A stretch of DNA of 64,000 bases. It comes from a virus. A program made the position numbers and the translations under genes. The DNA lies in the IMG/VR virus record IMGVR_UViG_3300032046_000010, positions 29,063 through 93,062 of that record; one strand, written 5' to 3'. Positions 1-29,229 of this stretch are shown here, piece after piece; the first letter of the stretch is position 1; each line of letters begins with the position of its first letter. Below the pieces are notes generated by a model. That model was not told where the DNA came from. It was given only the letters and a program-made list of their open reading frames with translations, and made no database searches.

Positions 1-198
1 GCCGGTCTTTGGGCCTTTCTGCTGTGAAGGCTCCGGCTTGGACTCCGGTACAGGCACCAACCACTCAACAGCATCCTGCGTGGAAGCATCCACTTCCTGC
101 GTGGGCTTCGGCTCCGGGTCAGGCCGCGCTTCCGGCTCCGGCTCCGCCTTGGGAGCCTGACCGCTGTAGCGCTGCCGTACCTCATCAAGCGTCGGCAT
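1..198 (-). CDS. Hypothetical protein, 5' part only (runs off the window edge); starts MPTLDEVRQRYSGQAPKAEPEPE
   Basis: ATG at 196-198 overlaps the kinase stop (TGATG); frame is open to the window end; N-terminus resembles the 8087..8725 protein. Confidence 0.7.
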   Translation of the reverse strand, partial: MPTLDEVRQRYSGQAPKAEPEPEARPDPEPKPTQEVDASTQDAVEWLVPVPESKPEPSQQKGPKTG

Positions 199-818
199 CA
201 GCCCACCGCCAGCAGTTCCTTGGCTCGTTGAAGGGTCGCAGACCGATCCAGGCCTGTCGTGTCCAGTCTGTAGACCTCCAAGCCCTCGACCCACGATACA
301 GCCTCACAACACTTGGAGATCAGCTCAGCCTCCCTCGACATCCACCCCTTCAAGCTCAACCCCATCTCTTCAGCACGCCCCAAGATGCGCGCTGGGAAGA
401 TCCTGTCGCCCGTCCGCTCCATCCTCTTGTTGAGGTCACAGACCAGTTCCAGAACAACTCCATGCGCATCCCGCAACATCCGACCCCAGACGGCTGCGAC
501 CTCCCCGCCTTGCCCCTCCGGCAAACAAGTGAACACATGATCCAGATCCATCGCATTGTAGGCAAGCGCTGAAGGCATCCCACGGTCACAGATCACGTCC
601 GGCCGGAGCGCCCGAAACACGTCCATCTGGAACATGTCCTCGACCCACGTGTTGACCGGGAACACGGAGTGGATGCTGACCGGAAGGATGGAGCCGGGGG
701 TGTGGTCGTCGCCGTCGCGTCTGAAGCTGCGGTACAACGGGCGGTTGATGTCCTTGGACAGCGCTTTCCCCAGCGTGGTCTTGCCGGTCCCGATGCCGCC
801 TTCCAACACGATGATCAT
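198..818 (-). CDS. Deoxynucleoside monophosphate (thymidylate-type) kinase
   Basis: IIVLEGGIGTGKTT P-loop and VICDR motif of the dTMP/dNK kinase family; ATGA overlap with the upstream gene fixes the start at 818. Confidence 0.85.
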   Translation of the reverse strand: MIIVLEGGIGTGKTTLGKALSKDINRPLYRSFRRDGDDHTPGSILPVSIHSVFPVNTWVEDMFQMDVFRALRPDVICDRGMPSALAYNAMDLDHVFTCLPEGQGGEVAAVWGRMLRDAHGVVLELVCDLNKRMERTGDRIFPARILGRAEEMGLSLKGWMSREAELISKCCEAVSWVEGLEVYRLDTTGLDRSATLQRAKELLAVG

Positions 819-2083
819 GGCTGGCCTCCGAAACAACGCGATGCCGCCCGGTCCAGTCTGGCCAAGGCTTGCTCCATCAACTCCGGCGGTGAGTTGAGTG
901 GTGGACAGATGCGGAGCGGCCGGTGAGGCAGATGCGCCATCAACAGCAGTCCTTCCTCCATCGCCCGATCACGGAAGGCAAAGGCATCGCTGTCTCCCCA
1001 CTTCGGCGTCAGCGACCAGACCAACCCGGTCCCTTCCGCCTTGTCCACCCAACGGCGACAAGCGAAGCCGTTGCGCAGAATGGTCTCACAGTTGCGCACG
1101 TTCTCCAACACTCCGCGTTCCAAGCCGTCGATCAGCCAGTTGATGAGGTAGCCCGCCAACAGGTTCCCGCCGAACGTGCTGAAGTGGGTCCCGGGCTCAA
1201 AGCCCTTGGATGCTTCCTCCGTCGCCAAGCAAGCTCCGGCCGGGATGCCCATCGCCAACCCCTTGGCCAACGTGAGGATGTCCGGCTTGAACCGCTCGCC
1301 GCTCACGTCGGTGACAGCCGGGTTCATCCAAGCACACGGATAGCCGGTGCGCCCCATCCCCGACTGAACTTCATCGAAGATCACCAGGAACCCGTGCTTG
1401 GCCCGAAGCTCCGACAACCTGGACCAAAACACGGGGCCGTAGAAGCGCATCTGGTTGTGCGTCAGAACCGGAGACATGATGAGCGCCGCAATATCGGGCC
1501 AGTTGATGAGGAATCTCGCATCCGAAGGAACCTCAGACGGTGTGGTGTGTAGATGGTATGTTTCCAAGTCCTGTTCGGCCATGTAGAATCCAGACGCAAA
1601 CGGACCAAATCCCTGCTTGTAGTACGGCGTGGCGTTGGTCTGTGTGGCAGCGAGACTGAACCCTGTGCGACCGTGAAGTTGATCTGGCAATGACAAAATC
1701 ACCTTGCGCCCTGGCTCCCCCTTGATATGGTGATAGCGCCTCGCCAGCTTGATGGCGGCTTCATTGGCCTCCGTCCCGCTGTTCGCAAAGAACACACGGT
1801 CCATGCCGCAGAACGCCGTCAGCCGGTCGGCCGTCGCCGTCCGTTCCGGCACGTTGTACCCGTTGGACACATGGACAGCCTGGGTGCTGTTGACCATGAA
1901 ACACTCGATGGCACGCCTGAGATCCGTGTGCCCCAGCGAGGCCACTCCGCCATCACACCACAGGTCGAAGTATTGCCGGCCGTCCCGGTCGATCAGGAAC
2001 CCATCAGCCGCGCCTTCGATGGTGGGCTCCAACGGCGGGAGCGAAGTGCGGATCAACGACCTGGGGTCAGCCTTCCCGCCCAT
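815..2083 (-). CDS. Class-III PLP-dependent aminotransferase (acetylornithine/ornithine aminotransferase-like)
   Basis: Motifs FFANSGTEANEAAIKLAR, HGRT, FDEVQSGMGRTG, PDILTLAKG (PLP lysine), STFGGN and RICPPL; likely start MGGKADP just after the ThyX stop. Confidence 0.92.
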   Translation of the reverse strand: MGGKADPRSLIRTSLPPLEPTIEGAADGFLIDRDGRQYFDLWCDGGVASLGHTDLRRAIECFMVNSTQAVHVSNGYNVPERTATADRLTAFCGMDRVFFANSGTEANEAAIKLARRYHHIKGEPGRKVILSLPDQLHGRTGFSLAATQTNATPYYKQGFGPFASGFYMAEQDLETYHLHTTPSEVPSDARFLINWPDIAALIMSPVLTHNQMRFYGPVFWSRLSELRAKHGFLVIFDEVQSGMGRTGYPCAWMNPAVTDVSGERFKPDILTLAKGLAMGIPAGACLATEEASKGFEPGTHFSTFGGNLLAGYLINWLIDGLERGVLENVRNCETILRNGFACRRWVDKAEGTGLVWSLTPKWGDSDAFAFRDRAMEEGLLLMAHLPHRPLRICPPLNSPPELMEQALARLDRAASRCFGGQP

Positions 2084-2087
2084 GACA

Positions 2088-3053
2088 TCATTCTCCCTTC
2101 GGCTTGGACCAACGGAACGGGTCGTGCCCCCACAGTTCCGCGTAGCCTGCGATGCGATCAACCGTGTCCTGATCCCCAGTCACTTCCCCGATCAGGTCGC
2201 CGTCCGGCTGGCGTCCGTGGTTCTCACAGTCGGCCACGAGGTACAGCGGGCAGGGCGCATGAGCATCCGACCCGTCGATGCGTCGCTGGTTCTCCAGGCG
2301 GTAGACGCAAGCGTTGAAGGTGTCGGTCAGCTTGTCCACGCACGGTGGTGCGATGACCCGCCGGAACAGTGGGTCCACCTTGCGCTCCAGCTCAGCAACG
2401 ATACCACGGATGATGGGTCCCCACAGACCGTATTGCAGGATCCAGCAGGACCGCTCCCCGATGATGTGGAGCAGAGCCGCCAGGTTGAGCGACCATGAGA
2501 TGCGGTGCGTGGCCCCCAACGGGATCACGTCCCTGGCATCCTCCATCGGCACGCCCGCCTCGACCAGTGCGTTGTAGGACCGCTCCGCCGATGCCATCGC
2601 CTGTTCGAACAGCGCAGCCGCCTTCGGTCGTTGGAACACAGCATCGGCCGTCCTGTACTGCCCCTTCCTGGCGAACTCACCCATGCTCTGGATACGCATC
2701 GACTGCGACCAGAACCCGCTCTTGGCTAGGTCGGGCACGATGTCAAGTCCCATCCGCTCCGGCGAGGCGCAGACGCCGATGCGGTGACGCACCATCTGCT
2801 CACGGAAGGACACCGACACGTCCTCCAGCATGAACACGAACCCCACGTGCTCAGCGATGGGGATGCGCTGCTCCAGGATCTGGAGGAACAGAGCATCGAC
2901 CTCCCGCTTGAAGTCGGGGTCTTGGTTGCGCTTCAGTGCCAGCGCATCAGGCAGCATCAGCTGTTCCTCGCCCTTGCTGGCCTGCCAGACCGTGTAGATG
3001 GTCTCGACCGGGTTGCGGGTGCACGACAACAACGTCGCCTTGGGGTCGCTCAT
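2088..3053 (-). CDS. thyX: Flavin-dependent thymidylate synthase ThyX-like protein (divergent)
   Basis: AEHVGFVF, QMVRHR...SQSMR, VPMEDARDVIP and WSLNLAAL follow the ThyX motif order; about 20-aa insertion after RHR. Confidence 0.88.
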   Translation of the reverse strand: MSDPKATLLSCTRNPVETIYTVWQASKGEEQLMLPDALALKRNQDPDFKREVDALFLQILEQRIPIAEHVGFVFMLEDVSVSFREQMVRHRIGVCASPERMGLDIVPDLAKSGFWSQSMRIQSMGEFARKGQYRTADAVFQRPKAAALFEQAMASAERSYNALVEAGVPMEDARDVIPLGATHRISWSLNLAALLHIIGERSCWILQYGLWGPIIRGIVAELERKVDPLFRRVIAPPCVDKLTDTFNACVYRLENQRRIDGSDAHAPCPLYLVADCENHGRQPDGDLIGEVTGDQDTVDRIAGYAELWGHDPFRWSKPKGE

Positions 3054-4021
3054 CCTTCCACCTTCCTGTACTTGTCCTTGATGGCCTGCTCTGCCCTTCT
3101 GGCGACGATGCGCAGGACATCAACCCAGTCCCTCGCCCGCTCGATGTTCGAGCCGTCCGCCAGCCCTTGGTTGTTGGGCTGGTCGAACATGATGGTGTGG
3201 ACACCGTGTCTGGACAGTTCCCAGACCTCACGAGGCATGTCGTCCACGGCCGCGATCACCGTCGCCGGAGCTATGCGTCTGGTGATGGCGTCCCACTTGT
3301 CGTGATCGAACAGCAGCAAGTCCCGCTGGAACCCGTGCTCATCCAACCAGTCCGTCGTGTCGAGGTACAAGCGGGGGTACTCACGCACCGGCCGCGCCGT
3401 CAACACCACGACCTTGACACCCAGTTCACGTATCAATGCGATGGCATCCGCCGCTCCAGGGATAGGCTTGAGCTTCCGCAACGCTCCGGTCTGGTACAAC
3501 TCACGCCTGTGATCCAAGTAGGCTTGCGCCTTCGCAGAATCGCCCTCCGGCACCGGGCCGATCATGCCTTGTGTCGCCGGGTCGCCCAGGAAGTCGGCCA
3601 ACACACCATCCAAGTCGGTGACGAACACCAGCGTGCCCTCGCGCAGCTTGACCTGCTCTGCCTCCCACCGTTGGGCAACCGTCCGCGTCTTGGCGTGGAA
3701 GCCCTCACACCATTCACAACCCTGGATGCCGCAGGTCAGCAACACAGCGATGATGTACTTGAACGTGTCCACTGCTTCCTCAATCACCCGCTCCCGGTCA
3801 GCCGGTCGGGCAGAGGCCAACAAATGGTAGCGTGATCGGTCGGTGGCCTTCTGAAGCTCCGCCAGTTCCTCGTGCGCTCCCAACAGCAAATCCTTGATCA
3901 GCAATGCCCGCTGGTCCGGGTCCAGCTGTGCCGCATCGTGCCACAGACGCTGTTGTTCTGCTTGCGCTGCCCATAGCTTCAGGATGGGGCAATCGTCGCC
4001 TACCTTCAAGTCACAGGCCAT
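3050..4021 (-). CDS. MazG/all-alpha dNTP pyrophosphatase fused to a HAD 5'(3')-deoxynucleotidase-like domain
   Basis: N-terminal EELAEL...EEAVD metal-binding motif; C-terminal HAD motifs DLDGVLAD, LTARP, K and AVDD. Confidence 0.85.
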   Translation of the reverse strand: MACDLKVGDDCPILKLWAAQAEQQRLWHDAAQLDPDQRALLIKDLLLGAHEELAELQKATDRSRYHLLASARPADRERVIEEAVDTFKYIIAVLLTCGIQGCEWCEGFHAKTRTVAQRWEAEQVKLREGTLVFVTDLDGVLADFLGDPATQGMIGPVPEGDSAKAQAYLDHRRELYQTGALRKLKPIPGAADAIALIRELGVKVVVLTARPVREYPRLYLDTTDWLDEHGFQRDLLLFDHDKWDAITRRIAPATVIAAVDDMPREVWELSRHGVHTIMFDQPNNQGLADGSNIERARDWVDVLRIVARRAEQAIKDKYRKVEG

Positions 4022-4988
4022 TCGCCGCCCTCCACCGCTCCGCCCGCTCCAACGCCTTGTCCATCGTCATCCGGGGGTCCCATTGAGCGAACCGGCCCAA
4101 CACCAACACGTTGGACGGATGCTGGAACACCGGAACCTCCCCGAACACATGAGCGGTGCGGATGTATCGCGGCTTGCCGACAATGCTGGCGTCGGAGCCG
4201 AACACAGAGTTCACGTCCAACATCAGCGCCCGCTCCGACACACCTTCAGCGTTGTAGGCTCCGTCTGGCAGCGGTGACAAGCGATACAGGGAGTTGCCCG
4301 GCGTGTACGGCGTGTACACGAAGTCCCAGTCCACGAAGTCCCGACAGGATGGCGCTTCAACCCTCGCCATGTAGGCGTCTGAAGCATGGAGCGGAACCGG
4401 CGAACGGATGCCCAGCATCGACAACGTCAGTGGTAGCGGCAGCGTCCAGACCAGATGGCTGTACTCCAAGTGTTCCTGGTCGTCGCCGCTCAGGGCCGAC
4501 CGGCGAACGTCCAGTGTGTTCGCTCCTGGGTACCAAGCCACAACTCCCTTGCGCAACACCTTGACTCGGTCCTCCACAGCCCGCCCCAACGCTCCCACGG
4601 ACACCATGTACCGCTGCGGGCCTGCTTGCCCGCCCTCGTTCATCGCTGTGTCGTGGAACCCATAGGTGGTCCGGCGAGTCTTGGTGTAGTGGTGAAGCAC
4701 AAACTGGCGCAACGGTTCCTTCCCGAAGTGGTCGGCCGCAGCCTTGAATGAGTACACACGCCCCTTCAGATACAGGCCAGAACGCACAGCCCGCTGCTCA
4801 CATCGGATACCCCAGACCTTGAAAGTGCTGTCGAACAGTTCTGACTGATGGATGTAGAACAGCCCGCCTCCGCCGGGGTTGCCCCCGGTTCCAAGCGGGT
4901 CGATGACAGTGACCTCGTGGTGTTTGGCCAGCACCAGAGCCGCTGCGACTCCGGCCGGGCCTCCGCCCACGATGATGATCGGCTTCAT
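4011..4988 (-). CDS. FAD/NAD(P)-binding oxidoreductase
   Basis: N-terminal IIIVGGGPAG Rossmann motif; LVWTLPL; C-terminal LGRFAQW FAD-binding motif typical of UGM/HemY-like flavoproteins. Confidence 0.82.
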   Translation of the reverse strand: MKPIIIVGGGPAGVAAALVLAKHHEVTVIDPLGTGGNPGGGGLFYIHQSELFDSTFKVWGIRCEQRAVRSGLYLKGRVYSFKAAADHFGKEPLRQFVLHHYTKTRRTTYGFHDTAMNEGGQAGPQRYMVSVGALGRAVEDRVKVLRKGVVAWYPGANTLDVRRSALSGDDQEHLEYSHLVWTLPLPLTLSMLGIRSPVPLHASDAYMARVEAPSCRDFVDWDFVYTPYTPGNSLYRLSPLPDGAYNAEGVSERALMLDVNSVFGSDASIVGKPRYIRTAHVFGEVPVFQHPSNVLVLGRFAQWDPRMTMDKALERAERWRAANGL

Positions 4989-6098: not shown

Positions 6099-6767
6099 TC
6101 AAGCCTCCCGCAAAACCTGACGAGCACGTGCCAGAGCGGACTTGACCCTGGCGGCCGGGATGCCCAGATGTTCCGCCAACATGTTCTCGGTGATGATCGG
6201 CTTCCCGGGTCGAACGTTGCGAGCCATGATCTCCAGTTCAGGTGGAGGACACAACCGTGCAGACAACACCAGCCGGTCCACCTCATCCAACCGCTGGATG
6301 ATGCGCTCGGTGACCCAGGCCTGCTGCTCATGTTCCTGGGTAGCTTCCAAACAGGCTGGGTCCGTCACGTCAGCATCGTTTTCCGCTGTGGAGCCGAACC
6401 CGGCCAAGCGCTGGTGCTTGGGAGACACACCATCGCCTTCATCGATGCGTGGTGCTCGTTTCAGCGCCAGTTCGTAGTTGACGATGGCCAACAGCGCGTT
6501 GCGCACAACCAGGTCAACCCAAGTGCGGAGTGCCCGGCCGCGCTCCGGCTTGTGCGTGGCCACGGCATAGATGGCGGCGATGCGAGCCTCTTGAAGCAGT
6601 TCAAAATGGTTCAAACCTGGGATGCGCTTGAACGGACGCGCCTTGGCATGGATCACGTCCTCCAGTTGAGGCAACAGCTTCGCCAGCGTCGGCTTCAACT
6701 CGTCAGGGCATGTCCAGCCTGTAGGAACGATATGCGGTGCCACCCATCCCTCCTGTCCCCATCCCAA
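6099..6767 (-). CDS. RNA polymerase sigma-70 family factor
   Basis: Region-2-like ELLQEARIAAIYAVATHKPERGRALRTWV and region-4 HTH LAEHLGIPAARVKSALARAR; true start may be the GTG near 6743 after AGGAGG. Confidence 0.85.
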   Translation of the reverse strand: MGWGQEGWVAPHIVPTGWTCPDELKPTLAKLLPQLEDVIHAKARPFKRIPGLNHFELLQEARIAAIYAVATHKPERGRALRTWVDLVVRNALLAIVNYELALKRAPRIDEGDGVSPKHQRLAGFGSTAENDADVTDPACLEATQEHEQQAWVTERIIQRLDEVDRLVLSARLCPPPELEIMARNVRPGKPIITENMLAEHLGIPAARVKSALARARQVLREA

Positions 6768-6824: not shown

Positions 6825-8048
6825 CTACCAGTCCTTGACGCCCAGCTTGAGCATCCCCATGGTGATCCACTTGGTCACCAGGGCGCGCAGGCGCGGTTCG
6901 ATGGCCTCGACCACCTTGACGCGGATGGCTTCCTTGTTGCCCTGGACCTCCACCAGCGGCTTCTTGCCGCCGACCGGCTCCAGCTTGACGCTGGCTCCGG
7001 CCTTGATGGGCCGGACGGTGAGCAGGTGCGGCTTGCCGCCCATGTTCATCGTCGTGGTGTAGACGTTGCCCTTCACCACGCCGCCCTTCTCCGGCTTCGG
7101 CTCCGTGCTGCGGGGCCGTCCCGGGCCGCGCTTGGCGGGCTGCGCCGCCGGGGCGGGGGTTGCCGCCTTGGCCGCCGGGGTCGGCTTCGCGGCCGGGGTC
7201 GGCTTGGCCGCCGCCGGGGCGGGGGTCGGCTTCGCCGGGGTCGGCTTCGCCGGGGTCGGCTTCGCCGGGGTCGGCTTCGCCGCCACCTTGCTCTTGGTGT
7301 CCTGCTTGCCCTTCGTTCCCATGTTGTCCTCCTGGCCGTCATCGGCCGTGGTTGCGCCGTCGGCATCGCTGCCTTCGGCATCCTCCCCGTTCCCGTCGCC
7401 GTCGCCGGCATCATCGTCGGCATCGGCATCGGCATCGTCGTCGGCATCGTCGGGGTCGGGGTCCGGGTCCGGCTCCACGACCTTGGCCGGAGGCTTGCCG
7501 GTGCCCTTGGCCTTGGCCTTGGGCTGCTCCGGCTCCGGCTCGCCCGCGCCCGCGTCCGGCTCCGCCGTCGTGGCCTCCGGTTCCGCATCCGGCTCCGTGG
7601 CCTCCGGCTCCGTGGCCTCCGGCTCCGCCGTCGTGGTCGTCGCCTTGGCACCCTTCTTCACGATGATCTTCTTGCCCATGACGCCTTCCTCCTGTTGACG
7701 GGGTCCACCCGCCAGCTTCGTGGTCACCGGGATGTCCAACGCCTCCCGTGTGAACCGTTTGCCCACTTCGTGGAACCGGAAGATGAACAACCCGTCCATC
7801 CCCAGACCCACGCGCTTGATGATCTCCATCAGCTGGTCGTCGGTCGGCTCCGACTCCCGGCTGTCCAACACCACCACCGACTCCCGCTGCGTCTTGCTGT
7901 AGTAGCCCGCCGCGCAGAAGCTCCCTTCCAGCAACCCAGTGGTCTTGCCGTTCTGGAACACGCCAGTCACCAGCGACACCAACCACACGTCCGGTGCGAC
8001 GGGCTCAACCACCAGTTCCTTGCCGACATTGGGTTCGTATCCGATCAT
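6825..8048 (-). CDS. Low-complexity nucleoid-associated-like protein (acidic tract, AKPTP repeats, AT-hook)
   Basis: D/E-rich tract, (AKPTP)n and KRGPGRPRS AT-hook; strong GC3 codon pattern. Confidence 0.7.
   Translation of the reverse strand: MIGYEPNVGKELVVEPVAPDVWLVSLVTGVFQNGKTTGLLEGSFCAAGYYSKTQRESVVVLDSRESEPTDDQLMEIIKRVGLGMDGLFIFRFHEVGKRFTREALDIPVTTKLAGGPRQQEEGVMGKKIIVKKGAKATTTTAEPEATEPEATEPDAEPEATTAEPDAGAGEPEPEQPKAKAKGTGKPPAKVVEPDPDPDPDDADDDADADADDDAGDGDGNGEDAEGSDADGATTADDGQEDNMGTKGKQDTKSKVAAKPTPAKPTPAKPTPAKPTPAPAAAKPTPAAKPTPAAKAATPAPAAQPAKRGPGRPRSTEPKPEKGGVVKGNVYTTTMNMGGKPHLLTVRPIKAGASVKLEPVGGKKPLVEVQGNKEAIRVKVVEAIEPRLRALVTKWITMGMLKLGVKDW
7174..7282. repeat. 15-bp coding tandem repeat GCCGGGGTCGGCTTC (AKPTP units)
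   Basis: Directly visible tandem copies. Confidence 0.85.
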
Positions 8049-28506: not shown

Positions 28507-29229
28507 TCACTCCACCAGGTGTTTCGTGGAAAGGACTGAAGTTGGCGGTGGCGTAAGTGGCGGCGGTGATGGCGGGCTTGGCGGACCAGGAGCCGCTGTC
28601 GGGTGAACATGCCCGCTGAAAATGGGGATCAGAGTGCTGGTGATCCAGTTGACCAGGGTCTCACCCTTGACCAGGTGCTCCGTCGCTCCGGCTCCGACCT
28701 TGATGCCTGCCGCCTCCATCTCGATGCCGCTGGCCTTCCACTCGATGTAGTGCCCATCCTTGGAGAGCACCTTCACACCATTGGTGCTGAGCAACAAGCT
28801 GTTGCCGCTCTTGTCCTGTAGCAGCGCCTGTTCCTGCCCCTCCGTGTCATCAAACAGCAGGATGTTGCCGGCCGGGGTACGGATGCCGCGCCGCTTCGGG
28901 TAGTTGGTCTTGAAGTCATCCGGCAGCTGCTGTGCTTCGTTGTACAGCGCGGCCCGGTAGCGTGCGTTGGGTGCTACCAGTGACGACTCGCCAGGCATCT
29001 CATCAGACTTCATGCTGTCGGTCACTTCCAGCTCAACCTGGTCGCCCTCGTCAGGTGGAAAGAACCAGCCAGCCAACTTGCTCGACACGTAGGGGAAGCA
29101 CGGTTCAATCCAGTAGGGCAACTCACGGTCGGTGCGGACCAGCCCGGGGCATCGAGCCTTGATGCGCCCTCGCTGCTCCGGGTCCTCCACGTTGGTCACA
29201 ACCCCAATCTGGATCGTCACGTTCCTCAT
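28507..29229 (-). CDS. Baseplate central spike (gpV/gp5 OB-fold)
   Basis: GVVTNVEDPEQRGRIKAR, FFPPDEGDQV and HVHP metal-binding tip. Confidence 0.9.
   Translation of the reverse strand: MRNVTIQIGVVTNVEDPEQRGRIKARCPGLVRTDRELPYWIEPCFPYVSSKLAGWFFPPDEGDQVELEVTDSMKSDEMPGESSLVAPNARYRAALYNEAQQLPDDFKTNYPKRRGIRTPAGNILLFDDTEGQEQALLQDKSGNSLLLSTNGVKVLSKDGHYIEWKASGIEMEAAGIKVGAGATEHLVKGETLVNWITSTLIPIFSGHVHPTAAPGPPSPPSPPPLTPPPTSVLSTKHLVE

Follow-up and report, generated by a model that had tools for sequence, protein, structure and literature searches.

The stretch of DNA analysed here (the window) comprises 64,000 nt of one strand, positions 29,063 to 93,062 of the IMG/VR virus record IMGVR_UViG_3300032046_000010, a 93-kb record estimated to be 91% complete. 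An open reading frame on its minus strand, at 2088-3053 with the stop codon (2088-2090) included, encodes a ThyX-like protein of 321 aa, here called ThyXL. By its sequence and its structural model, ThyXL is an uncharacterised member of the ThyX-fold family of flavoenzymes and belongs to a large, virus-only clade. As read from alignments, the nucleotide site and the RHR flavin anchor are kept, and a trio of active-site residues (His-Asn-Tyr) and two ligands of flavin adenine dinucleotide (FAD) are replaced. These changes are conserved, not due to chance, and define the whole clade. Sequence and gene context suggest, without proving, that the enzyme acts on deoxyuridine monophosphate (dUMP) and releases something other than plain deoxythymidine monophosphate (dTMP); both the product and the pathway around it are inferred.

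Family and fold of ThyXL

The first-pass annotation had taken the protein for a ThyX homologue, and both profiles and structure bear this out. ThyXL matches Pfam Thy1 (PF02511) above the gathering score (E 9.3e-21, 74.9 bits, cut-off 24.8) as well as PHROG 85, "thymidylate synthase", and scores under the cut-off of the thyX equivalog NCBIfam TIGR02170 (57.0 bits, cut-off 87.9). An AlphaFold model with 43 relatives as input has a mean predicted local distance difference test (pLDDT) score of 87, and the only stretches of low score (<50) are residues 94-97 and 100-114. When compared with solved ThyX structures, that of T. maritima among them, the model gives a Foldseek probability of 1.0 and VIA Z scores of about 12-14 over about 190-209 residues (47 ThyX entries). 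The structures matched are the ThyX of T. maritima, M. tuberculosis, C. glutamicum, H. pylori and PBCV-1, and also PolB; none of these solved ThyX structures has a counterpart for an insert near the active site or for the last ~95 residues. The ESM Atlas returned generic ThyX clusters only, and no description of the ThyXL clade was found in the literature searched.

How large is the clade and where does it occur? A word-indexed search gave over 120 proteins that are 43-69% identical (E < 1e-83), nearly all of them metagenomic, the contigs reaching 116 kb. When 1.84 billion representatives were searched exhaustively with the clade profile, 239 passed E <= 1e-30, 845 passed E <= 1e-10 and 2739 passed E <= 1e-3, and the signature RHRIG-[insert with invariant Asp/Pro]-S-x-WWSQSMR-I is common to at least 239 clusters (50% identity). 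Among 50,697 phage records no ThyXL member was found in a cultured phage, the best matches being the ThyX of Pbunavirus and of Bacillus phages with 26-28% identity. Similarly, a cell with ThyXL as its sole thymidylate synthase was sought, and none of 185,579 prokaryote species, whose genomes were scanned for two clade signature peptides, encodes them.

A tree of 61 sequences was then considered. Because it was built quickly and long branches in it were flagged, its topology is to be taken as indicative, not as final. The insert-bearing proteins form one group (Shimodaira-Hasegawa-like approximate likelihood ratio test, SH-aLRT, 93), which is sister to a group of proteins of no-insert form and paralogs (SH-aLRT 97). 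Grouping with canonical ThyX had been named beforehand as the result that would speak against the first-pass annotation; in the tree, a branch of length about 2 (SH-aLRT 99) instead lies between the whole ThyXL set and the other phage ThyX, of which 14 are canonical and 4 RTR-type.

The remodelled active site

Residues of ThyXL were mapped by HMMER alignments to the chains of T. maritima ThyX (TM0449) in the PDB (chain number = native + 12) and, as a second route, by a MAFFT alignment with canonical phage ThyX; conservation was counted over 119 ThyXL relatives. The coordinates given were all confirmed by translation. Much of the canonical site is found again. E58-H59 of T. maritima corresponds to E68-H69 of ThyXL, Q75 to Q86, R78-H79-R80 to R89-H90-R91, S88 to S118, R90 to R120, E144 to E171, R147 to R174, N163 to N190, R174 to R201 and Q180 to Q207. 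R89, H90, S118, R174 and R201 are invariant in the relatives, Arg is kept at R91 and at R120 in 117/119 each, and Gln at Q86 in 115/119. In characterised ThyX the conserved arginines and the Ser bind dUMP (PMC6514825). Since these dUMP ligands (R78, S88, R90, R147, R174 and Q75 in T. maritima numbering) are all retained, invariant or nearly so, dUMP is likely still the substrate, which speaks against the first part of the earlier proposal of a different substrate, C1 donor or product. The relay of a methylene from flavin N5 to C5 of dUMP is probably shared with canonical ThyX as well.

The differences begin with the signature RHR-x7-S-x-R-Y. The Ser and Arg are present, and neither the spacing nor the Tyr is as in the signature: 26 residues lie between RHR and the equivalent of Ser88 in ThyXL, and 25-41 across the 119 relatives, versus 7 in canonical ThyX. 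The interruption had been put at about 20 extra residues in the first-pass annotation and here amounts to an insert of about 18 residues. Behind it the trio His53-Asn85-Tyr91 is replaced by a variable residue, Trp and Ile (R63, W115 and I121 in ThyXL). The position of Tyr91 holds Ile in 113/119 relatives and Tyr in 2/119, and the position of His53 is unconstrained (R in 57, K in 22, H in 19 and N in 8 of 119, with G and Q too). The loss of both the folate-stacking His and the Tyr after SxR, noticed by eye before, is thus confirmed. Tyr91 closes like a lid over uracil C5 and flavin N5 and has been proposed to act as a general acid, and its mutation in T. maritima makes flavin oxidation ~1000-fold slower; in reduced ThyX it is hydrogen-bonded to His53, which Asn85 also holds and which stacks on folate (PMC11940539).

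Two FAD ligands are replaced as well, T55 by P65 and R165 by A192. Their equivalents in M. tuberculosis, Ser71 and Arg190, bind the phosphate and ribityl groups of FAD (second subunit; PMC6514825). P65 is invariant among the relatives, and position 192 is S, G, Q or A. N163-x-R165 has accordingly become N190-L-A192, the change from NxRxL to NLAAL that had been read from the sequence at the start, and further along N169 has become H196. R201-S-C203-W-I205-L-Q207 aligns with canonical R174-xxx-H178-A-Q180 and stands where R-A-D-S-H-A-Q is found, so that AQWEI of canonical ThyX is ILQxGxW in ThyXL. This change from RxxxHAQ to RSCWILQ was also seen correctly; its H178 part carries little weight, because H178 is poorly conserved in canonical phage ThyX too.

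The clade has in turn gained invariant residues of its own. D104, W115, D172, H183, H196 and C203 are new and invariant in the 119 relatives (D172 is clade-specific), and M119 is invariant too. All in all, about 40 residues are invariant across ThyXL proteins that are just 45-50% identical. The earlier description of a remodelled active site was therefore correct and even understated, because the changes define a conserved clade.

Insert, C-terminal extension and inteins

The insert is 18-34 residues long across the clade, and within it D104 is invariant and P107 is Pro in 117/119 relatives. The C-terminal extension of about 95 residues, absent from canonical ThyX, also holds R258, D263 and W308. 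The extension and four invariant cysteines had been missed in the first-pass annotation. These are C203 (R-x-C-W-I-L-Q), C238 (P-P-C), C249 and C268 (P-C-P-L), and in the AlphaFold model they lie in confidently modelled loops of the C-terminal extension. They probably form a metal site, either Zn or iron-sulphur (Fe-S).

Is the cysteine site a mark of a new function? R-x-C and three C-terminal Cys are also found in the clearly canonical phage ThyX proteins L062, L064 and L070, and the same four-Cys pattern occurs in the RTR-type Pbunavirus proteins and in the no-insert sister group. The site is thus older than the ThyXL clade and does not mark a new function. The pattern in L062, L064, L070 and Pseudomonas phage Banzai (L076:5998-6915) suggests that a wider set of viral ThyX has a metal site not described so far, and no report on a four-Cys site of viral ThyX was found in the literature searched.

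Inteins interrupt the family at two fixed sites, Q117|S118 (+1 Ser) and G202|C203 (+1 Cys). Seven members carry them (P0076, P0121, P0122, P0182, P0203, P0220 and P0221), and P0182, with 871 aa, has inteins at both sites. Inteins usually home to functionally critical motifs. Their positions therefore indicate that Ser118 and the first Cys are important, which argues for active proteins. A catalytically dead ThyXL, serving a structural or regulatory role such as a nucleotide-binding subunit of a replication complex, is hardly credible: the Tyr lid has indeed gone, as have the stacking His and two FAD ligands, and a second paralog in some PolA-type phages (see below) has also lost R90 (SxSHQL) and altered RHR, but the family is widespread, inteins target the S118 and C203 sites, and the roughly 40 invariant residues include all substrate ligands.

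Gene neighbourhood in the window

The ATG of ThyXL overlaps the stop of the upstream gene (GGATGA / ATGA), and a gap of 4 nt separates its own stop from the ATG of the downstream gene. ThyXL therefore lies inside a tightly packed, co-directional operon (Table 1). The upstream gene encodes a fusion protein, in which about residues 38-123 form a MazG-like all-alpha NTP pyrophosphatase domain and about residues 128-307 a 5'(3')-deoxyribonucleotidase domain (dNT) of the cdN/mdN type in the haloacid dehalogenase superfamily (E 3e-7). Enzymes of the cdN/mdN type prefer dUMP and dTMP. A common family for this MazG-like domain and the DUF6378 protein that adjoins ThyXL in PolA-type phages (described below) was considered and rejected (hmmsearch E > 0.3, hhalign probability 0.2%). 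Beyond the fusion lies a gene for a flavoprotein, whose best folds are UDP-galactopyranose mutase (UGM), protoporphyrinogen oxidase, renalase and amine oxidases. Downstream of ThyXL are a class-III aminotransferase, whose matches in cultured phages resemble bacterial argD/astC in poorly curated records, and a divergent kinase, for which tblastn found no match at E <= 1e-3 among the 50,697 phage records. Replication genes adjoin the operon downstream, namely DnaE, RecA, an SbcCD-like protein and a FEN-type 5'-3' exonuclease. ThyXL is the sole Thy1 match in this genome, and no ThyA, dCMP deaminase or dUTPase was found there.

Several other genes are recorded here as observations. Just upstream of the operon are a phage sigma-70-like factor and an acidic / AKPT-repeat protein (window 6099-6767 and 6825-8048), and CobT/CobS-like genes occur in the corresponding block of relatives. 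Outside the window the same genome encodes a glycosylase of the uracil-DNA glycosylase superfamily (genome 14545-15174, L077), a family present in 11/19 ThyXL phage genomes of both lineages described below, as well as an MT-A70 adenine methyltransferase (L077:13465-14109) and a PIG-L/LmbE-family deacetylase (L077:4674-5444). A link to polyamines through a weak spermidine-synthase-like gene (L077:6933-7841) was dropped as a general explanation, such a gene being present in just 2/19 ThyXL phage genomes.

Table 1. Coordinates of ThyXL motifs and regions, of neighbouring operon genes (positions in the window) and of ThyX-family genes at loci of related phages
Feature	Location	Strand	Description
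QRIPIAEH, residues 62-69	2847..2870	-	R63 for folate-stacking His53; P65 for FAD-binding Thr/Ser55
RHR motif, R89-H90-R91	2781..2789	-	flavin-anchoring motif, retained
Insert, residues 94-111	2721..2774	-	clade-specific, 18 residues; active-site loop, disordered in monomer model
SGFWSQSMRI, residues 112-121	2691..2720	-	S118 = S88; R120 = R90; I121 for Tyr91 lid; W115 for N85
PMEDAR, residues 169-174	2532..2549	-	E171 = E144; R174 = R147, dUMP phosphate ligand
NLAALLHIIGERSCWILQ, residues 190-207	2433..2486	-	N190 = N163; A192 for R165; H196 for N169; R201 = R174; C203; Q207 = Q180
C-terminal extension, residues 226-321	2091..2378	-	no counterpart in solved ThyX
C238	2340-2342	-	invariant Cys of extension
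C249	2307-2309	-	invariant Cys of extension
C268	2250-2252	-	invariant Cys of extension
Flavoprotein	4011..4988	-	UGM / protoporphyrinogen-oxidase / amine-oxidase fold; AlphaFold pLDDT 80
MazG-like + deoxyribonucleotidase fusion	3050..4021	-	family profile
Class-III (omega) aminotransferase	815..2083	-	ArgD-like, 230 bits, far below every equivalog cut-off
P-loop kinase	198..836	-	thymidylate-kinase (Tmk)-like, divergent
Second ThyXL paralog	L026:7742-8650		
Second ThyXL paralog	L033:319-1227		
Second ThyXL paralog	L041:1800-2681		
Second ThyXL paralog	L042:1759-2643		
Second ThyXL paralog	L053:6404-7285		
Canonical ThyX of G017	L079:5742-6401		about 1 kb downstream of the deaminase
dCMP deaminase of G017	L079:4216-4707		

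Loci of related phages

Is this arrangement typical of the family? For 54 IMG/VR loci encoding ThyXL the context was recorded; since some of them lie on contigs that are almost the same, they represent closer to 20 independent phages. ThyXL was always in a replication or nucleotide module, adjoining DnaE or PolA. An aminotransferase is near ThyXL in 29/54 loci, most of which also have the kinase, the MazG-dNT fusion and the flavoprotein, and a flavoprotein is near ThyXL in 24/54. Across the aminotransferase-bearing loci the ThyXL proteins are 37-56% identical, and the aminotransferase lies upstream of ThyXL in some and downstream in others. The other ~25 loci belong to smaller PolA-type phages, in which ThyXL is just upstream of PolA and primase. 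Before ThyXL in these loci come a PF05014 nucleoside-deoxyribosyltransferase/DNPH1-like (dNMP-glycosidase-like) protein, an HD YfbR-like 5'-deoxynucleotidase and a DUF6378 protein, and in 10 of them there is a radical S-adenosylmethionine (radical-SAM)/SPASM enzyme.

Additional ThyX genes occur in a few of these phages. Five PolA-type loci have a second ThyXL paralog of about 295-300 aa, which is more divergent and without the insert, has the same four Cys, and shows RxHR for RHR and S-x-S-H-Q-L for S-Q-S-M-R-I (R90 lost); it often lies across the radical-SAM/SPASM gene from the main copy. G017, an operon-bearing ThyXL phage (behind L006), also encodes a canonical ThyX of 219 aa (KHGH...RHRLASYAQESTRY) in which the stacking His is present, together with a dCMP deaminase. 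It is the only one of the 54 ThyXL records with a second, canonical thymidylate synthase.

What does ThyXL make?

The reading that we tentatively prefer, though we stop short of calling it probable, is flavin-mediated one-carbon transfer to dUMP with a product other than plain dTMP. C5 of dUMP would receive the one-carbon unit from reduced flavin. As the Tyr lid and its general acid are lacking, the exocyclic-methylene stage would not simply be reduced to methyl, and water or an amine may capture the methylene to give 5-hydroxymethyl-dUMP or a 5-aminomethyl-type dUMP, by chemistry like that of MnmEG. In the operon lineage the flavoprotein of UGM/amine-oxidase fold and the class-III aminotransferase could then tailor the side chain from alcohol through aldehyde to amine, the Tmk-like kinase could phosphorylate the modified nucleotide, and the MazG-dNT fusion may drain the competing dTTP/dTMP or dUTP/dUMP pool. 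For the conversion of -CH2OH to -CH2NH2 by a flavin oxidase and then a class-III aminotransferase there is a precedent in aminoglycoside biosynthesis. In MnmEG an amine is thought to capture the flavin-delivered methylene at uracil C5, and radical-SAM, pyridoxal phosphate (PLP) and flavin enzymes are the tailoring classes of the known thymidine hypermodification pathways (PMC8989533).

We favour a product other than dTMP because the Tyr lid is gone, because the clade has new invariant polar residues, and because the neighbours are hard to explain by dTMP supply: an aminotransferase, a second flavoprotein, an own kinase and a dUMP/dTMP-type nucleotidase that would fight a dTMP synthase. The neighbours in PolA-type phages, with dNMP-degrading enzymes and a radical-SAM enzyme, are counted on the same side. 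The product part of the earlier proposal thus gains indirect support from the loss of the H53-N85-Y91 trio, the long branch, the score under the equivalog cut-off, the operon linkage and the canonical ThyX in one phage.

A far more specific scenario, which we regard as unlikely, would make ThyXL the first ThyX-fold dUMP hydroxymethyl- or aminomethyl-transferase. It would open a pre-replicative route from 5-hydroxymethyl- through 5-formyl- to 5-aminomethyl-dUMP and on to the diphosphate, the flavoprotein, the aminotransferase and the kinase taking these three steps in turn, with thymine replaced in DNA and the MazG-dNT fusion stripping dTTP and dTMP. The DNA of widespread, uncultured phages of about 100 kb would then carry the positively charged 5-aminomethyl-uracil or a derivative of it, and the four Cys could hold an Fe-S or Zn centre not seen before in ThyX enzymes.

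What if ThyXL is an ordinary flavin-dependent dTMP synthase after all? A viral lineage may have rebuilt the active-site loop, with Trp and Ile for His and Tyr and an insert that closes the site, while the metal site anchors the C-terminal tail and the neighbours serve nucleotide or amino-acid supply or flavin reduction. This is the main rival and nearly as likely as the preferred reading, and several points weigh for it and against a modified product. Apart from ThyXL, this genome and 53/54 related records have no thymidylate-synthase homologue, and ThyA was found neither here nor in any of 24 larger records tested, which is the pattern expected of a plain phage dTMP synthase. Hardly any variation is seen at the dUMP ligands or at the RHR flavin ligands, and the gene stays beside DnaE or PolA. 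The PolA-type phages, about half of the family, have neither the aminotransferase nor the flavoprotein, so the chemistry of ThyXL is independent of both. Some phage ThyX, of RTR type or otherwise canonical, have V, H or A where Tyr91 stands, and 2/119 ThyXL proteins keep the Tyr; the lid Tyr is therefore no absolute requirement. As noted above, canonical phage ThyX already carry RxC and the three C-terminal Cys. To our knowledge no ThyX-fold hydroxymethylase or aminomethylase has been described.

Pbunavirus adds another point of this kind, since its phages carry a four-Cys ThyX-like gene and a homologue of the flavoprotein, both of them distant, and we know of no report of modified DNA in this genus. 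The "putative flavoenzyme" of Banzai (L076:3723-4781) matches the flavoprotein of the window with an hhalign probability of 89% (E 2e-6, 129 columns), and the two share a C-terminal LGRFAxW motif. The flavoprotein could accordingly be a redox partner rather than a tailoring enzyme, and the pairing of ThyX-like protein and flavoprotein may be older than the aminotransferase operon. A restriction digest of JG024 was dropped as evidence on thymine modification in Pbunavirus, the SacII site having no T.

Other observations speak against an ordinary dTMP synthase. Loss of Tyr91 is costly in T. maritima, as described, and here two FAD-phosphate ligands are lost too; the branch is long and separate, and the score is under the thyX equivalog cut-off. 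An aminotransferase conserved in a nucleotide operon has no role in dTMP supply, and the nucleotidase next door would oppose it. G017 keeps a canonical ThyX and a dCMP deaminase in addition to ThyXL, and no cell with the clade was found among the prokaryote genomes scanned.

It is quite improbable that ThyXL acts on another nucleotide, turning dCMP into 5-methyl- or 5-hydroxymethyl-dCMP, or using UMP like PolB, with the MazG-like domain supplying the monophosphate as gp56 of T4 does for gp42. The combination of MazG-like dNTPase, C5-transferase and dNMP kinase does resemble the gp56/gp42/gp1 set of T4, and the PolB structure matches as well as ThyX (Z 13.6). But the Arg that reads uracil O4 (R174, here R201) and R90 (R120) are invariant or nearly so, and an Arg at that place would suit uracil, not the N4 amino group of cytosine. 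Moreover, no PolB-specific feature came to light, and in structural score all ThyX are level.

Comparison with known systems

Among the relatives of ThyX, PolB of polyoxin biosynthesis, a C5-methylase of UMP/dUMP (PDB 4P5A/4P5B), is a precedent for a ThyX paralog with extra loops that was recruited to a secondary C5-modification pathway (PMC5954106). The Z score of 13.6 is that of 4P5B, and ThyX entries give 13.1-14.2. Unlike what is proposed for ThyXL, PolB still methylates, and it is bacterial. No sign was found that its loops match the ThyXL insert, and over the aligned model range, 1-237, it has no Cys4 site or C-terminal extension in line with ThyXL.

The RTR-type ThyX-like protein of Pbunavirus (Banzai gp062) is about 26% identical over its full length and similar in length to ThyXL. 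It has Cys at RxC, at P-x-C and at two further C-terminal positions, and the Tyr is lost (TSRA). It differs from ThyXL in having no insert and RTR for RHR and in standing on the canonical side of the tree. The UGM-fold flavoprotein homologue lies about 1.2 kb upstream of the ThyX-like gene, and neither an aminotransferase nor a MazG-dNT fusion was detected in the 12.9-kb Banzai region.

The same role as proposed for ThyXL, that of a pool-level C5 one-carbon transferase supplying phage DNA with a modified pyrimidine, is played by the ThyA-family dUMP/dCMP hydroxymethylases of phages whose DNA contains 5-hmdU or 5-hmdC (SPO1, T4 gp42, ViI and M6). Known hypermodifications are finished on DNA by 5-HMUDK, a P-loop kinase of 5-hmdU in DNA, and aGPT-Pplase, an amino-acid:DNA transferase, encoded near a dUMP hydroxymethylase. 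The hydroxymethylases are unlike ThyXL in fold and mechanism, which are unrelated, with a Cys nucleophile and no flavin. They are flanked by a dNTPase/nucleotidase and a dNMP kinase, with radical-SAM, PLP and flavin tailoring enzymes nearby, and a chemical precedent for a flavin-carried methylene captured by an amine is MnmE-MnmG, which makes 5-carboxymethylaminomethyluridine or 5-aminomethyluridine (cmnm5U / nm5U) on tRNA (PMC8989533). MnmE-MnmG has another fold and an RNA substrate, so the likeness to ThyXL would be mechanistic only.

Significance

ThyX, a target for antibiotics, works by an unusual mechanism, and the Tyr lid, the stacking His and the FAD ligands are regarded as essential to it and conserved. 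The ThyXL clade is a natural experiment on which residues the flavin-methylene relay needs. Even as a plain dTMP synthase ThyXL would be a new structural subclass, with its insert, four-Cys site and C-terminal domain, and a separate annotation name would be warranted. In every phage thymidine hypermodification known to us, the first enzyme is a hydroxymethylase of the ThyA type. Should ThyXL release a hydroxymethylated product, or one captured by an amine, it would provide a second, flavin-based entry to thymidine hypermodification, with a new tailoring set (omega-aminotransferase and UGM-fold flavoprotein) that would act on free nucleotides and not on DNA. This would widen the known chemistry of phage anti-restriction DNA and would offer enzymes for C5-functionalised nucleotides.

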